DNA of 64,000 nucleotides, taken from NCBI RefSeq assembly GCF_001677475.2, contig NZ_CP015229.1; one strand, given 5' to 3'. The notes under the pieces were generated by a model. That model had not been told where the DNA came from, made no database searches, and worked only from the letters and a program-made list of their open reading frames with translations. This DNA comes from Escherichia coli (GTDB lineage Bacteria > Pseudomonadota > Gammaproteobacteria > Enterobacterales > Enterobacteriaceae). Positions 12,502-41,717 of this stretch are shown one piece after another. Positions within the stretch are counted from its first letter, which is position 1. The number at the start of each line of letters is the position of its first letter. The position numbers were made by a program, and so were the translations under genes.

Positions 12502-12698
12502 GTTATGAATTTAGCCAAAGCTATGTTTAGTGTATTTTTAATAATCAGACATAGCTTAGGCTATATTACCTCTTCCCTTATTTGTTATTTATTTTAACGT
12601 TTCATTGATATATAAATCTAAATGAAAATCGTTATCAATAAAGCAATGAAATAATATATTCCAACAGTTGTTTATGAGACGACAATAACTCAGTCCGC

Positions 12699-12720
12699 CT
12701 GGCGCCGATTATTCTGGCCG
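12699..12720. repeat. Left terminal inverted repeat of the IS21-family element (ctggcgccgattattctggccg)
   Basis: Hand alignment: 18 of 22 positions match the reverse complement of 15035-15056. Confidence 0.5.
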
Positions 12721-12765
12721 GTTTTGTAACCTGAGTGTCATTTACATGATCCAACAGGAAATGGC

Positions 12766-14265
12766 GTGACGCTCAATACTTCTCAGGTCAGTTACTATAT
12801 GACTCAGCGTAAGAAAGGTATAACTCAGCATATCTCGGCCATGAAGGCTGGTATCTCAGTCCGTTCTGGTCGTCGGATCGAAAAAGGAGAGTGGGCAAAA
12901 AACAGTGTTCGGCACTGGCGCACACGCAAAGATCCTCTGGAAGCTGTGTGGGACAGCATGCTTGTTCCTCTGTTGAAAGAGAGGCCGGCTCTGACACCAA
13001 CAACTCTACTGGAGATGCTACAGGATAAATATCCCGGCCAGTACCCCAACAGCCTTCGAAGAACAATGCAACGGCGGGTTCGCGAATGGAAACTACAGTA
13101 TGGTACAGAGCAGGAGGTCATGTTCCGCCAGCAACATCAGCCCGGCCTGCGAGGCCTGTCGGACTTTACTGAACTGAAAGGTGTAGTTGTCACCATCGCC
13201 GGTAAGTTGTTGGCGCATAAGTTGTATCACTTCCGTCTGGAATGGAGCCACTGGAGCTGGATGCGGGTTGTTCTGGGTGGTGAGAGCTTCTCTGCTCTGG
13301 CTGAAGGCCTGCAGGAAGCCCTCGGACAACTGGGCGGAGTGCCGGTAGAACATAAAACGGACAGCCTGAGGGCAGCATGGAAACAACAGGGCGAAGATGG
13401 ACGCCGCGAGCTGACTGAGCGTTATGCTACTCTCTGTCAGCACTACGGAATGCAGGGCGTACACAATAATGCCGGTCGGGGCCACGAAAATGGCTCGGTT
13501 GAAAGTGCCCACGGACATCTGAAAAGGCGTATCTGTCAGGCGCTGATACTGCGGGGCAGTAACGACTTCAGCACCATAGAAGAATATCAGGCCTTCATCA
13601 CTCAGCAGGTTATGCGGCACAACCGTAACAATCAGGATCTGGTCAAGGAAGAACGTCTTCATCTGAAACCGCTGCCGCTTCGTCGCAGTGCTGACTATGA
13701 TGAGCTGACTGTGAGGGTTAGTCGCAGCAGTACCATCAATGTGAAGCACGTCGTCTACAGCGTACCTTCCCGGCTTGTAGGTCAACTGTTACGGGTCAGG
13801 TTATGGGACGATCGTCTGAGCTGTTACGTTGGCAGCAGCGAGGTCATGAGCTGCCCTCGCGTCAGACCAGAAAAAGGGAAGACGCGGGCCCGTCGTATCG
13901 ACTTCCGACATGTGATCGACAGTCTGGCAAAAAAGCCCGGTGCGTTCTGCCATGCAACGCTGAGAAATGACATCCTGCCGGACGATGAATGGCGGAGGCT
14001 GTGGCGTCGCTTATGTAATCATCTGGAGCCCGATATGGCAGGAAGGCTGATGGTACATGCCCTGAAACTGGCTGCAGGATACGACGATATCTCAGTCGTG
14101 GCAAAAGGTATGGAGCAGATGCTGAATACCCCGGGAAACGTGGATCTGCACCGGCTGATGCGCTTCCTGGGTATAAAAGAAAAGGCGTTGCCGGTAGTCA
14201 ATGTGATACAGCATAACCTGAGCAGTTATGAGCAACTACTGCGTGGCAAGGGAGGTTCGCAGTGA
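12766..14265 (+). CDS. istA: IS21-family transposase IstA
   Basis: 499-aa ORF from GTG at 12766 (alternative in-frame ATG at 12799); N-terminal HTH-like region, large catalytic domain; stop overlaps istB start. Confidence 0.8.
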   Translation: MTLNTSQVSYYMTQRKKGITQHISAMKAGISVRSGRRIEKGEWAKNSVRHWRTRKDPLEAVWDSMLVPLLKERPALTPTTLLEMLQDKYPGQYPNSLRRTMQRRVREWKLQYGTEQEVMFRQQHQPGLRGLSDFTELKGVVVTIAGKLLAHKLYHFRLEWSHWSWMRVVLGGESFSALAEGLQEALGQLGGVPVEHKTDSLRAAWKQQGEDGRRELTERYATLCQHYGMQGVHNNAGRGHENGSVESAHGHLKRRICQALILRGSNDFSTIEEYQAFITQQVMRHNRNNQDLVKEERLHLKPLPLRRSADYDELTVRVSRSSTINVKHVVYSVPSRLVGQLLRVRLWDDRLSCYVGSSEVMSCPRVRPEKGKTRARRIDFRHVIDSLAKKPGAFCHATLRNDILPDDEWRRLWRRLCNHLEPDMAGRLMVHALKLAAGYDDISVVAKGMEQMLNTPGNVDLHRLMRFLGIKEKALPVVNVIQHNLSSYEQLLRGKGGSQ

Positions 14266-15017
14266 GCAATATCCATCACCTTGAACATAGCCTGCGTAAA
14301 CTACGCCTGACACGAGTTGGAGCTGAATGGCACGCTCTGGAAAAACGAGCGCTGGCAGAAGGCTGGACACCATCGCGCTATCTTCTGACGCTATGCAATG
14401 AAGAACTCCTGTGGCGCGAGAGTGAAAAACTGCGTCGTTATAAAAAGGAGGCCCGGTTGCCAGTTGCCAAAACGCTGAGCGAATACGACTTCAGTCAGGT
14501 GCCGGAACTGAATGGAGCTCAGTTCCGGCAACTCTGTGAAACGACAGACTGGGTTGATGCAGGAGAAAACGTTCTGCTGTTCGGAGCCAGCGGGTTGGGG
14601 AAAAGCCATCTGGCGGCAGCGATCGTGGATGGCGTAGTAGGTCAGGGCTACCGGGCCCGGTTCTACAGCGCAGGAGAGCTGTTGCAGGAACTACGTAAAG
14701 CCAGAGCTCAGTTGAAACTGAATGAGCTGCTACTGAAACTGGATCGCTACCGGGTGATAGTGGTGGATGATCTTGGCTATGTCAAACGCGATAGTGCCGA
14801 AACGGGTGTGCTGTTCGAGTTAATAGCGCATCGCTATGAACGTGGGAGCCTGGTGATAACCAGTAACCATCCGTTCAGCATGTGGGGCAGCATCTTCGTG
14901 GATGAGACTATGGCGGTGGCTGCGGCAGACAGGCTGCTCCATCACGGATATATGTTCGAACTGAAAGGGGAAAGCTACAGGAAAAAGACAGCGAAGGCAG
15001 TAACAAGCGCGACTTGA
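14262..15017 (+). CDS. istB: IS21-family helper ATPase IstB
   Basis: 251-aa ORF with Walker A (LLFGASGLGKSHLAAAI) and Walker B-like (VIVVDDLGY) motifs; translationally coupled to istA. Confidence 0.85.
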   Translation: MSNIHHLEHSLRKLRLTRVGAEWHALEKRALAEGWTPSRYLLTLCNEELLWRESEKLRRYKKEARLPVAKTLSEYDFSQVPELNGAQFRQLCETTDWVDAGENVLLFGASGLGKSHLAAAIVDGVVGQGYRARFYSAGELLQELRKARAQLKLNELLLKLDRYRVIVVDDLGYVKRDSAETGVLFELIAHRYERGSLVITSNHPFSMWGSIFVDETMAVAAADRLLHHGYMFELKGESYRKKTAKAVTSAT

Positions 15018-15034
15018 TGTCGCCCTGAAGGGTG

Positions 15035-15056
15035 CGGCCAGTATAGTTGGCGCGAG
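15035..15056. repeat. Right terminal inverted repeat of the IS21-family element
   Basis: Reverse complement ctcgcgccaactatactggccg pairs with 12699-12720 (18/22). Confidence 0.5.
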
Positions 15057-15121
15057 TCGGCAAAACTAGTTGACGTCTAATAGTTGTTTTATATTCTCAA
15101 AATATGTTAAGGTTGCGCCCT

Positions 15122-15346
15122 CATTTGGGGAGTAGCCGATTTCCAGATTCCGGAAATGTACGTGTCAACATACTCGTTGCAAAACGTGGCACGTACGGAC
15201 TGAACACTTTCAGTCAGGCGAGACCATATGCACATCAATCGCTATGCCTGCATGAACGCGAAAACCCGTCGCGGCTTGTTGTTCATGTATGCATGTTTGC
15301 TGGGGGCGATGATGTGTTTTATGGATACCCCGGTCAGGACGTTGTC
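15122..15346 (+). promoter_or_regulatory. mntP 5' leader with predicted yybP-ykoY manganese riboswitch (extent approximate)
   Basis: Long untranslated leader before the mntP ATG beginning with ggggagtagcc near the expected transcript start; the E. coli mntP leader is known to hold an Mn riboswitch; structure not folded here. Confidence 0.5.
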
Positions 15347-16804: not shown

Positions 16805-16840
16805 AGCAAAGTAAAAAGCCTCGCATTCGACGAGGCTTTA
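16805..16840 (-). terminator. Rho-independent terminator after cspC
   Basis: Stem aaagcctcg/cgaggcttt with T-run on minus strand. Confidence 0.55.
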
Positions 16841-16884
16841 TAGCGAGATTGAAGCGTATTCACACTTCAGATCAGTGGATTCGA

Positions 16885-17094
16885 TCAGATAGCTGTTACG
16901 TTAACAGCTGCCGGACCTTTCTGGCCGTCCTGAATTTCGAACTCAACGTTCTGACCTTCAGCCAGAGTTTTGAAGCCATTACCCTGGATAGCGGAGAAGT
17001 GTACGAACACGTCTTTGCTGCCATCAGCCGGAGTAATGAAGCCAAAACCTTTAGACTCGTTGAACCACTTAACCTGACCTTTAATCTTTGCCAT
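16885..17094 (-). CDS. cspC: Cold-shock-domain protein CspC
   Basis: 69-aa [23 protein letters not shown] with RNP motifs. Confidence 0.95.
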
Positions 17095-17106
17095 TTGAAA
17101 AATTCC

Positions 17107-17250
17107 TTAGATTGTTTTCTTCGCCCGCAGGCATAACATAGATAAAACTGACACATTACTGCATGAGGCACCAATATAAGGCTCGGCAGAGAAGCGGTAT
17201 TCAACGTCAACGTGTTTACTCAGGACTTCTTTACTGAAAATGCCACACAT
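17107..17250 (-). CDS. yobF: Small protein YobF (47 aa), co-transcribed with cspC
   Basis: Hand translation of minus strand: [47 protein letters not shown]; absent from ORF track (below 60 aa). Confidence 0.8.
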
Positions 17251-17919
17251 AAACAGAACTGTACCTCGTTTAACCCGAAATCTGTTATCACATACAACGT
17301 TAATTATGGCAAGCCATTTTTAAACATGTCTCGATCAGACGCACAAATCTCGATACGTCTTCCACTTTTTTTGCACACTTATGCAACGGAATACGCGCCG
17401 ATATATCATTGTGCTTAACCTTGCCAGTTCAGGCAGATACTTAAACTGACGTATTTTCTAACATAGTTCAATAAGTTCAGTTGTTCCAGGCCAGTAGGAG
17501 AAGTTATTACATAGTGCGTGCAATATCACATTTTCTGCTATGCAATGAATAAAAAGTTATATCACTTTTTCTCATAAAACAGTCAGTTAACGGCCACCAA
17601 TTACCCCAAAGAGAAGTCAATCCCCAATGGTATTGTAAATTTAAAATAAGAAAAATTGATGAATGCGCAAAAAAATCAAGAGAGAAACGTTTCGCTAATA
17701 AATAATACCACGCTTAATCACAAATCCGATGTAAACATCCTAATAAATTAATGGGCTAAATATCTTTTTCTGATATCTCGTTACGCAAATAAATAATATG
17801 ATAATTATTTGAAGTCAGACCAGAGTTTTAATTTGAAGCAGTTGCACCATGACAGTGCGTATAATCAGGATGAATTGAGTAACCCTTCAACGACGGGGTT
17901 ACTCAAGATTGAGGAAGGA

Positions 17920-32719: not shown

Positions 32720-32993
32720 CTATAAAGTCAGCGAAGGGAATGCTTCTGGCTTTTAACAGATAAAAAGAGACCGAACACGATTCCTGTATTCGGTCCAGGG
32801 AAATGGCTCTTGGGAGAGAGCCGTGCGCTAAAAGTTGGCATTAATGCAGGCTTAGTTGCCTTGCCCTTTAAGAATAGATGACGACGCCAGGTTTTCCAGT
32901 TTGCGTGCAAAATGGTCAATAAAAAGCGCGGTGGTCATCAGCTTAAATGTTAAAAACCGCCCGTTCTGGTGAAAGAACTGAGGCGGTTTTTTT
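32720..32993 (+). ncRNA. ryeA: RyeA (SraC) sRNA, antisense partner of SdsR; ends approximate
   Basis: Plus-strand terminator (accgcc...ggcggt then TTTTTTT, about 32955-32993) between pphA and yebY; a RyeA transcript opposite SdsR is established for this locus; 5' end not determined. Confidence 0.35.
32762..32864 (-). ncRNA. sdsR: SdsR (RyeB) RpoS-dependent Hfq-binding sRNA
   Basis: Minus-strand sequence GCAAGGCAACTAAGCCTGCATTAATGCCAACTTTTAGCGCACGGCTCTCTCCCAAGAGCC...GTGTTCGGTCTCTTTTT matches remembered SdsR including the terminal hairpin and U-tail. Confidence 0.75.
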
Positions 32994-38705: not shown

Positions 38706-39365
38706 TTATTCCGCCAAAGTGCGTTTTTGCTGTTCGAGATCGCGTTCAATGCCTTCACGAACATCCTGGGGGATTTTCAGCGCGTCACCCAGTGCATTCA
38801 GGTAACTGCGTTCCATAAAATGGTCAATATCAATAGCCGCGCAGCTCAGGAAATAGATTTCCAGCGCCTCTTCTTCATTGCGGACCCCGGTAGCCAGGCG
38901 TTGTGGATCCAGCGGTTGTTCGATTGCCTGCTCAATGAGTACACGCCCCTGCTCTTCCACGCCGGCTTCACGCAATTGCAGGTCGATTGCCGCACGTTCT
39001 TTGGCATCAATATGACCATCACTTTTAGCGGCAAAGACTAGCGCAAGGATCAAACGTTCCGTACGCTCATCCAGCGGCGTACTTTGCGCGCCAAACTGCG
39101 GTTCGTCCTGATGCGCCGCGCGAATTTTATCTTTGTATTTATTCCACAGCACCGTACCCGCTACCGCTCCGCCGCCAACCAGCAACGCGTTGGTGCCATA
39201 TTTCGTAAGAAGTTTACGTGCTGATTTATTTGCGACCAGCAGCCCAGCCAGTCCGCCTAATGCGCCAGGCACTAAAAGTTTGCCCAATCCCTGATCCGCA
39301 GACGAGGAGGTAGAAGAACTGCTTTGCCCAAGCAGGGATTGCAGTTGATTTAACCAGTTAGCCAT
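38706..39365 (-). CDS. yebE: Inner-membrane protein YebE (DUF533)
   Basis: 219-aa [17 protein letters not shown]. Confidence 0.8.
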
Positions 39366-40114: not shown

Positions 40115-40405
40115 TCAGGCCGCGTGTGAGGCATCTTCCTCTTCGGATTCAGCACCGACGACCTGTGGGGACGGTAATTTGCCGGTTTTCAGAATGGTGC
40201 TAAGCACATCTTTTTGTTCTGCCAGCCATAGCGAAAGGGCTTCACGTTGCTCGTCTTCCATTTGCACTGGAGAATTTGTCAGCCAGGTGTCAAGCAGATC
40301 CGCCGTATCAAGCATTTTGTCATAAGCATCGGCTTCCTTTTTGCTGGTAAACGACATTTTCTCTTCGCCCTCACGAATGACTACGTATTTAACTTCAACC
40401 GCCAT
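40115..40405 (-). CDS. yebG: SOS-inducible DNA-damage protein YebG
   Basis: 96-aa ORF MAVEVKYVVIREGEEKMSFTSKKEADAYDK; LexA box just upstream. Confidence 0.8.
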   Translation of the reverse strand: MAVEVKYVVIREGEEKMSFTSKKEADAYDKMLDTADLLDTWLTNSPVQMEDEQREALSLWLAEQKDVLSTILKTGKLPSPQVVGAESEEEDASHAA

Positions 40406-40424
40406 TTGCAGCCTCTCATAATAA

Positions 40425-40440
40425 CTGTGATTTTATACAG
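40425..40440. promoter_or_regulatory. LexA (SOS) box upstream of yebG
   Basis: CTGTGATTTTATACAG fits CTGT-N8-ACAG, 20 nt upstream of the yebG start. Confidence 0.6.
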
Positions 40441-40538
40441 TATATTTCTTTTTGGTTGGGAAATCAACATCAGCGATAAAGACACGCGCAAACGTTTTCG
40501 TTTATACTGCGCGCGGAATTAATCAGGGGATATTCGTT

Positions 40539-41717
40539 ATGACGTTATTAGGCACTGCGCTGCGTCCGGCAGCAACTCGCGTGATGTTATTAGGCTCCGG
40601 TGAACTGGGTAAAGAAGTGGCAATCGAGTGTCAGCGTCTCGGCGTAGAGGTGATTGCCGTCGATCGCTATGCCGACGCACCAGCCATGCATGTCGCACAT
40701 CGCTCCCATGTCATTAATATGCTTGATGGTGATGCATTACGCCGTGTGGTTGAACTGGAAAAACCACATTATATCGTGCCGGAGATCGAAGCTATTGCCA
40801 CCGATATGCTGATCCAACTTGAAGAGGAAGGACTGAATGTTGTCCCCTGCGCGCGCGCAACGAAATTAACGATGAATCGCGAGGGTATCCGTCGCCTGGC
40901 GGCAGAAGAGCTGCAGCTGCCCACTTCCACTTATCGTTTTGCCGATAACGAAAACCTTTTCCGCGAGGCGGTTGCTGAAATCGGCTATCCCTGCATTGTT
41001 AAACCGGTGATGAGTTCCTCCGGCAAGGGGCAGACGTTTATTCGTTCTGCAGAGCAACTTGCTCATGCATGGGAGTACGCTCAGCAAGGCGGTCGCGCCG
41101 GAGCGGGCCGCGTAATTGTTGAAGGCGTCGTTAAGTTTGATTTCGAAATTACCCTGCTAACCGTCAGCGCGGTGGATGGCGTCCATTTCTGTGCACCGGT
41201 AGGTCATCGCCAGGAAGATGGCGACTATCGTGAATCCTGGCAACCACAGCAAATGAGCCAGCTGGCTTTGGAACGTGCGCAAGAGATTGCCCGTAAAGTG
41301 GTGCTGGCACTGGGCGGTTATGGGCTGTTTGGTGTCGAGCTGTTTGTCTGTGGTGATGAGGTGATTTTCAGTGAGGTCTCCCCTCGCCCACATGATACCG
41401 GGATGGTGACGTTAATTTCTCAGGATCTCTCGGAGTTTGCCCTGCATGTGCGAGCCTTGCTCGGACTTCCGGTTGGCGAGATCCGTCAGTATGGTCCTGC
41501 AGCTTCTGCCGTTATCCTGCCACAACTGACCAGTCAGAATGTCACGTTTGATAATGTGCAGAATGCCGTAGGCGCAGGCCTACAGATTCGTTTATTTGGT
41601 AAGCCGGAAATTGATGGCAGCCGTCGTCTGGGGGTGGCACTGGCTACTGCAGAGAGTGTTGATGAAGCGATTGAGCGCGCAAAGCACGCCGCCGGACAGG
41701 TAAAAGTACAGGGTTAA
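40539..41717 (+). CDS. purT: Formate-dependent GAR transformylase PurT
   Basis: ORF 40452..41717 trimmed to [27 protein letters not shown] (392 aa); ATP-grasp fold. Confidence 0.9.

Follow-up and report, generated by a model that had tools for sequence, protein, structure and literature searches.

LexA operators of yebG and ruvAB in a segment of the Escherichia coli chromosome, and a possible terminator role for the ruvAB palindrome

The boxes found upstream of yebG and ruvA are almost certainly genuine LexA (SOS) operators, and ones that have already been characterised in Escherichia coli. Both are identical in sequence to known sites of strain K-12, score highest in a LexA matrix scan, overlap promoter elements and are conserved across species; that LexA binds them is taken from the literature on the identical K-12 sequences. 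The two operators are thus known, and their regulation is of the textbook kind. The ruv operator was reportedly first described by Shinagawa et al. and by Benson et al. in 1988, and the yebG operator by Lomba et al. in 1997. The primary papers on LexA binding are said to be those of Shinagawa (1988), Benson (1988) and Wade (2005), and the heterology index and the lists of sites reportedly go back to Lewis et al. (1994) and Fernandez de Henestrosa et al. (2000). This main finding is an expected one; the overlap of the ruvAB operator with a putative transcription terminator, discussed below, is the only reading with some novelty.

The window, meaning the whole stretch of 64,000 nucleotides that was analysed, is a segment of the E. 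coli chromosome that runs from inside yoaA to cmoB, as mapped by BLAST against strains KV7 and K-12. It is collinear with both strains except for a 2.4-kb insertion at about 12673-15082, and KV7 is 100% identical to it at yebG-purT. The corresponding K-12 region extends from yebE to yebC, and the stretch around the yebG and ruvAB sites is matched in 5425 of 5426 complete E. coli genomes. In the RefSeq annotation of matching E. coli genomes, the first site is occupied by yebF, yebG and purT and the second by ruvB, ruvA, yobI and yebB, in agreement with the gene calls for yebG, ruvA and ruvB made in a first-pass annotation of the window; in addition, the yebG product matches the Pfam YebG family with E = 4e-34 (Table 1). 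Rfam returned no match at the yebG box or at the ruvAB box. The value of the two operators is mainly that of a quality check, in that they mark the window as ordinary E. coli core chromosome and support the gene calls and, for yebG especially, the position of the promoter.

The insertion, which is absent from KV7, is an IS21-family element with a transposase ORF of 499 amino acids, an IstB-like ATPase of 251 amino acids and imperfect terminal inverted repeats of 48 nt, and with a possible short target duplication (...AGTTGTTT). An aptamer of the mntP Mn2+ riboswitch is found at 15119-15215, with a score of 41.9 bits that is just under the Rfam cut-off of 45. The element lies about 37 nt upstream of this aptamer, and mntP may therefore be cut from its native promoter. 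Rfam also located the overlapping sRNAs SraC/RyeA (plus strand) and SdsR/RyeB (minus strand) at 32758-32902, and a cspA-type thermoregulator 5' UTR at 16810-17270, upstream of a cold-shock-family gene beside yobF; both are expected here.

Table 1. Coordinates of genes, operators, promoters and matrix matches in the window
Feature	Position	Strand	Matrix score (bits)	Rank in window	Expected matches	Basis or remark
yoaA LexA operator, CCCTGTTCAAATCAACAGGG	484-503 (core 486-501)	minus	7.9	23		pattern match; PMC8378479
Third-ranked matrix match	39340-39359		13.3	3		inside 5' end of yebE
yebG CDS	40115-40405	minus				ORF call, RefSeq; 96 aa; Pfam PF07130 YebG
yebG LexA operator, 20-mer TACTGTATAAAATCACAGTT	40423-40442	minus	22.9	1	0.001	matrix score and K-12 identity
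yebG sigma-70-like promoter	40439-40467	minus				promoter scan; hexamers also in PMC3946193
purT CDS	40540-41717	plus				ORF call; divergent from yebG
ruvB CDS	54007-55017	minus				ORF call, RefSeq
ruvA CDS, GTG start at 55637	55026-55637	minus				ORF call, RefSeq
ruvA and ruvB operon	54007-55637	minus				
ruvAB sigma-70-like promoter	55675-55703	minus				promoter scan; hexamers also in PMC3946193
ruvAB LexA operator, 20-mer CGCTGGATATCTATCCAGCA	55687-55706	minus	18.1	2	0.046	matrix score and K-12 identity
yobI small ORF, 21 aa, same direction as ruvA	55776-55841	minus				RefSeq

Operator sequences, matrix scores and chance expectation

Of 18 K-12 LexA boxes taken from Table 4 of PMC3009722, 16 were used to derive a log-odds matrix, the yebG and ruvA boxes being left out, and the matrix was run over about 128,000 positions of the window. 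The yebG and ruvA boxes ranked first and second, and both scores fall within the range of 16.4-29.5 bits spanned by the training sites, so that neither operator lies below threshold, the outcome that the first-pass annotation had named as counting against them. A score of 18.1 bits was attained by one of 200 dinucleotide shuffles, and 22.9 bits by none. The mean shuffle maximum was 13.0 +/- 1.9 bits, which is about the level of the third-ranked match, and beyond yebG and ruvA the matrix scan gave no window match above the shuffle maximum. Matches at positions 1101 and 1222 were discarded as LexA operators, both positions being inside yoaA. The Berg-von Hippel heterology index calculated from the same matrix is 4.8 for yebG and 8.0 for ruvA (training range 0.3-9.2); the literature values are 6.3 and 7.6, respectively (PMC11228462, quoting Courcelle 2001).

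The first-pass annotation had described a CTGT-N8-ACAG box 20 nt upstream of yebG, and this description is borne out by the core CTGTGATTTTATACAG at 40425-40440, with its near edge 20 nt from the first base (A, 40405) of the yebG start codon. The ruvAB operator that it had placed at 55688-55705, upstream of ruvA, is likewise present as the 18-mer gctggatagatatccagc, 51 nt upstream of the ruvA GTG codon (55637). The K-12 RefSeq record lists only coding sequences here, and the comparison with reference operators was therefore made with the literature. Both boxes equal the published K-12 boxes base for base, the 25-mers of PMC3009722 Table 4 occurring verbatim on the minus strand at 40420-40444 (yebG) and 55684-55708 (ruvA). 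The designation of the ruvA box as non-canonical is apt relative to CTGT-N8-ACAG, but the box, which reads CTG-GATATCTATC-CAG, obeys the invariant CTG-N10-CAG rule stated for LexA operators in PMC11228462 and PMC5999292, as does the yebG box, CTG-TATAAAATCA-CAG.

Short patterns of this kind could in principle be chance palindromes, one or both of them devoid of any regulatory role. CTGT-N8-ACAG is not significantly enriched in the window, where it is matched 2 times against 0.77 expected and where at least 2 matches arise in 15 of 100 shuffles, and CTG-N10-CAG occurs 29 times. Because the bare CTGT-N8-ACAG pattern is so unremarkable, the test must use the whole 20-bp operator, and the scores of the full 20-mers are expected only 0.001 and 0.046 times in the window. 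Both boxes, moreover, sit in the correct promoters, are identical to known K-12 operators and are conserved across genera, and LexA-dependent induction has been published (PMC11228462). Chance is consequently an exceedingly improbable source of the yebG and ruvAB boxes, and this reading is effectively refuted.

The first-pass annotation was right about the SOS operators of yebG and ruvAB, but overlooked a third, that of yoaA. Apart from the yebG core, CTGT-N8-ACAG is matched exactly in the window only by the core of the yoaA box, which lies between yoaA and yoaB and 6 nt ahead of the GTG start codon of yoaA at 477. The yoaA box reads CTG-TTCAAATCAA-CAG, and its mutation to CCC...GGG results in constitutive expression (Sutera et al. 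2021, PMC8378479). With a heterology index of 15, it fits the matrix far less well than the yebG and ruvA boxes do, and it is positioned closer to the start codon. As this validated box scores only 7.9 bits, a matrix threshold would miss it, and matrix scans therefore understate the SOS regulon.

Promoter context and SOS regulation

For yebG, a sigma-70-like promoter consists of the -35 hexamer TTGATT (40467-40462), a 17-nt spacer and the -10 hexamer TATACT (40444-40439), the last four nucleotides of which are the first four of the operator. The operator thus takes in the last part of the -10 hexamer together with the inferred transcription start. Downstream of it lie a GAGAGG ribosome-binding site and, 17 nt beyond the operator, the ATG codon. 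The hexamer pairs of both yebG and ruvAB are included in a genomic-SELEX catalogue of RpoD promoters (PMC3946193).

The yebG box falls within the 134-bp intergenic region that yebG shares with purT, an arrangement that would allow the operator to repress the divergent gene as well. The promoter-like site of purT (AAGACA-18-TATACT, 40479-40508), however, starts 37 nt beyond the box, purT carries an invariant PurR-type operator of its own at about 40486-40501, and the gene is absent from the SOS gene list of PMC11228462. Repression of purT from the yebG operator is accordingly judged very improbable. The PurR-type operator, GCGCAAACGTTTTCGT at 40486-40501, is situated between the yebG and purT promoters and overlaps the -35/spacer region of purT, and the sequence ACGAAAACGTTTGCG is invariant across five genera. 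From its resemblance to the consensus, the site is taken to be a PurR box.

At ruvAB, the only sigma-70-like match on the ruvA sense strand is TGGATA-17-TATCAT, with the -35 hexamer (55703-55698) within the operator, a run of seven T residues (55686-55680) inside the 17-nt spacer and the -10 hexamer at 55680-55675. The -35 hexamer TGGATA is weak, and Culyba 2018 (PMC5999292) found the ruvA promoter to be biphasic after UV and, with their tool, predicted no sigma-70 promoter; for these reasons the ruvA promoter is placed less firmly than that of yebG. The first-pass claim that the operators support the promoter positions consequently holds well for yebG and less firmly for ruvA. Since the assignment of the -35 and -10 elements is uncertain, the exact mechanism of occlusion at ruvAB is uncertain too.

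An early paper is said to have mentioned two SOS boxes at ruv, and a candidate for the second can be picked out at 55669-55688 (sense strand CATTTTTTTATCATACAGCA), abutting the first box and covering the -10 hexamer. It has a good right half-site, ATACAGCA, and with a symmetric matrix it reaches 9.1 bits, the eighth-best score in the window. Nevertheless, the mean shuffle maximum (13 bits) exceeds that score, the heterology index amounts to 14.4, and the left half is rich in T and lacks a CTG. In addition, the CAG of the half-site is unconserved, the consensus of the 77 species listed being ATACCGCA, and it is on this ground that the candidate was rejected. A second LexA box at ruvAB is thus very improbable.

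At each promoter, a LexA dimer would bind the 20-bp imperfect palindrome on double-stranded DNA and block RNA polymerase, presumably by steric occlusion of the -10 hexamer and start region in the case of yebG, and of the -35 hexamer in the case of ruvAB. Upon DNA damage, RecA-stimulated self-cleavage of LexA would free both promoters. The stronger operator of yebG would provide tight repression and strong induction; the weaker operator of ruvAB would permit substantial basal expression and only about 2-fold induction.

Published expression data are consistent with this scheme. By RNA-seq, yebG is induced 4.4-fold upon AZT treatment, with a lexA3 dependence of 9.7-fold (PMC11228462), and strong LexA-dependent induction fits a stronger operator placed over the start site. 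In the same data, ruvA is induced 2.0-fold with a lexA dependence of 1.9-fold (PMC11228462). This modest response, which by its weakness also counts against the ruvAB operator, fits a weaker, -35-proximal site. Salmonella yebG has its box 17 nt from the ATG codon and responds to nalidixic acid with a 41-fold induction (PMC8072944). Both yebG and ruvA are included in the SOS gene table of PMC6590174.

Conservation across species and within E. coli

Nine YebG homologues, located by protein searches, were sampled. Seven of them, down to 44% identity and including those of Salmonella, Citrobacter and Intestinirhabdus, have a strong box upstream, which is the single best match (17.4-28.4 bits), is positioned 13-28 nt before the start codon and is always fused to a -10-like TATAC or TACAC; the sequence TATACTGTA is kept in yebG homologues. 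The matrix scan gave no box upstream of the two most distant homologues sampled (40% and 38% identity). Within E. coli, a 38-mer at yebG is identical in 4333 of 5426 complete genomes, those without an exact match amounting to about 18%. Two box variants were read, in one genome each: T14C in the ST131 strain EC958 and A10G in the O157:H7 strain G5295. Both are single SNPs in the central spacer that leave a score of 21-22 bits.

For ruvA, genome contigs were searched with RuvA, and the 80 closest species, all Enterobacteriaceae, were considered, 78 of them with enough upstream sequence. Among these closest species listed, CTGGAT-N4-ATCCAG is found upstream of ruvA in all 78, and in 76 of the 78 it lies 47-52 nt before the GTG codon. 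In an alignment of the listed species, the arms of the box are invariant or nearly so, the T-run and TAT[G/C/T]AT are kept in 77 species, the four central bases of the box differ between species, and the sequence farther upstream cannot be aligned. Within E. coli, 5202 of 5413 genomes carry the 78-nt ruvA promoter unchanged.

The ruvAB palindrome as a possible ruvC terminator

The ruvAB box may have a second function. In most Enterobacteriaceae it is quite possible, if short of probable, that the operator acts at two levels, as LexA site and carrier of the -35 hexamer on DNA, and as intrinsic terminator of yebC-ruvC on RNA. The palindrome would then form the terminator stem for whichever co-directional gene is upstream (ruvC in the majority of Enterobacteriaceae, yobI in E. 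coli), and termination would leave ruvAB to be expressed from its own LexA-controlled promoter. Stem stability would be the reason for retaining the G+C-rich positions G6/C15 and G2/C19, together with G1/C20 in relatives, and selection on the stem would explain why the operator deviates from the LexA consensus at its positions 1, 2, 6, 15, 19 and 20.

The elements of a terminator, a stem-loop followed by a U-tract, are present in E. coli as well as in its relatives. The E. coli site was flagged as terminator-like on the ruvA strand, with a 7-bp stem and a 4-nt loop (GCTGGAT-ATCT-ATCCAGC) followed by ATTTTTTTAT; the hairpin has a predicted energy of -10.6 kcal/mol (z = -3.5) and runs into the seven T residues. 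Among the 18 K-12 LexA boxes, that of ruvA is the most G+C-rich and forms the most stable hairpin. The position of the site, just after the end of a co-directional gene, is also that of a terminator in 49 of the 78 species (from the 80 closest listed), which are without the yebB or yobI insertion and in which the ruvC stop codon is 6-14 nt (about 9) upstream of the CTGG of the box. In 48 of these 49 listed species the palindrome is longer, reading (A)GGCTGGAT-N4-ATCCAGCC(T), and is followed by six or seven T residues. The mean hairpin energy of the extended palindromes is -15.0 kcal/mol, and the stems of the relatives are 9-10 bp or more in length, with energies of -14.7 to -19.6 kcal/mol over a flanked 42-nt segment. 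For instance, in Salmonella the order is yebC, ruvC, hairpin, ruvA and ruvB, all on one strand, and the hairpin, at a locus called terminator-like, starts 9 nt after the ruvC stop codon.

Stem strength also appears to follow the identity of the upstream neighbour. Where yebB is upstream and divergent, the stem is weaker (-10.6 or about -6 kcal/mol) in 11 of 13 species among those listed, and the listed species that carry another inserted co-directional ORF, such as the Kosakonia group, have mostly kept the strong stem. The E. coli form of the box is the better LexA site, at 18.1 bits versus 14.5 bits for the majority form, yet has the weaker stem. A possible history is that, in lineages such as Escherichia, the insertion of yebB and yobI separated ruvC from ruvA, and that the outer G-C pairs decayed and the box shifted closer to the LexA consensus; for E. 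coli this would mean a weakened or vestigial terminator.

In E. coli itself, yobI is the sole co-directional gene upstream, and its stop codon is about 70 nt upstream of the ruvA box. A need to terminate yobI was nonetheless rejected as the reason for the hairpin: among the tblastn matches listed, homologues of yobI are confined to Escherichia loci, whereas the hairpin and T-run are family-wide. The tblastn matches to 'WIFIQPFF' were not accepted as yobI, as they are merely the translated box and T-run.

Several observations weigh against a terminator role. Neither yobI nor ruvA has an associated 3' end in the K-12 Term-seq data, which place that of ruvC at 1946817, directly downstream of the gene (PMC7815308 supplements). 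The conservation of the arms is equally explained by LexA binding, and because the arms are invariant they show no compensatory changes of the kind that would prove an RNA stem. The T-run, too, belongs to the promoter spacer beside the -10 hexamer, and it is invariant in E. coli although ruvC is 800 nt away. The association of ruvC adjacency with stem strength is drawn from counts of species that are not phylogenetically independent. Given the invariant arms, the location of the T-run in the spacer, the non-independence of the species and the K-12 Term-seq data, the terminator role is put forward here as a hypothesis. An overlap of operator and terminator at ruvA was not found described in the literature searched; Sanchez-Alberola et al. 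2012 (PMC3323433) discussed how ruvCAB was split while ruvAB stayed under LexA control, and inferred a secondary ruvAB promoter; a terminator is not mentioned there. Should the dual role of the palindrome be true, a single sequence would serve repressor, promoter and terminator, and gene insertions would relax one of these constraints. Neither the terminator reading nor the lesson drawn from yoaA alters the understanding of the SOS response.

Set beside known systems, the operators of the window are those of K-12. The ruvAB box is contained in an identical 25-mer, with no difference detected between K-12 and the window. At yebG, the 25-mer, the spacing to the ATG codon, the promoter hexamers and the divergent purT neighbour are all the same as in K-12; the only differences are two SNPs within the promoter spacer and another two farther upstream, all of which are outside the box, the -10 and -35 hexamers and the ribosome-binding site. 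The LexA box of cho (ydjQ), CACTGGATAGATAACCAGCA, has the CTGG...CCAG subclass in common with the ruvA box, as well as G at position 6 and GC at positions 18-19, but is a poor palindrome, with a hairpin of -4.2 kcal/mol as compared with -10.6 kcal/mol for the ruvA box. With Rho-independent terminators, the ruvC-adjacent species share a stem of 9-10 bp that is rich in G+C, a loop of 4 nt and a tract of six or seven U residues. Unlike such terminators, the ruvA stem doubles as a protein operator that includes a -35 hexamer, and termination at it is putative. As in the ancestral ruvCAB cluster with LexA sites that has been described for the Vibrionaceae (Sanchez-Alberola 2012, PMC3323433), ruvAB retains a LexA site of its own, with ruvC either adjacent or separated by inserted genes.
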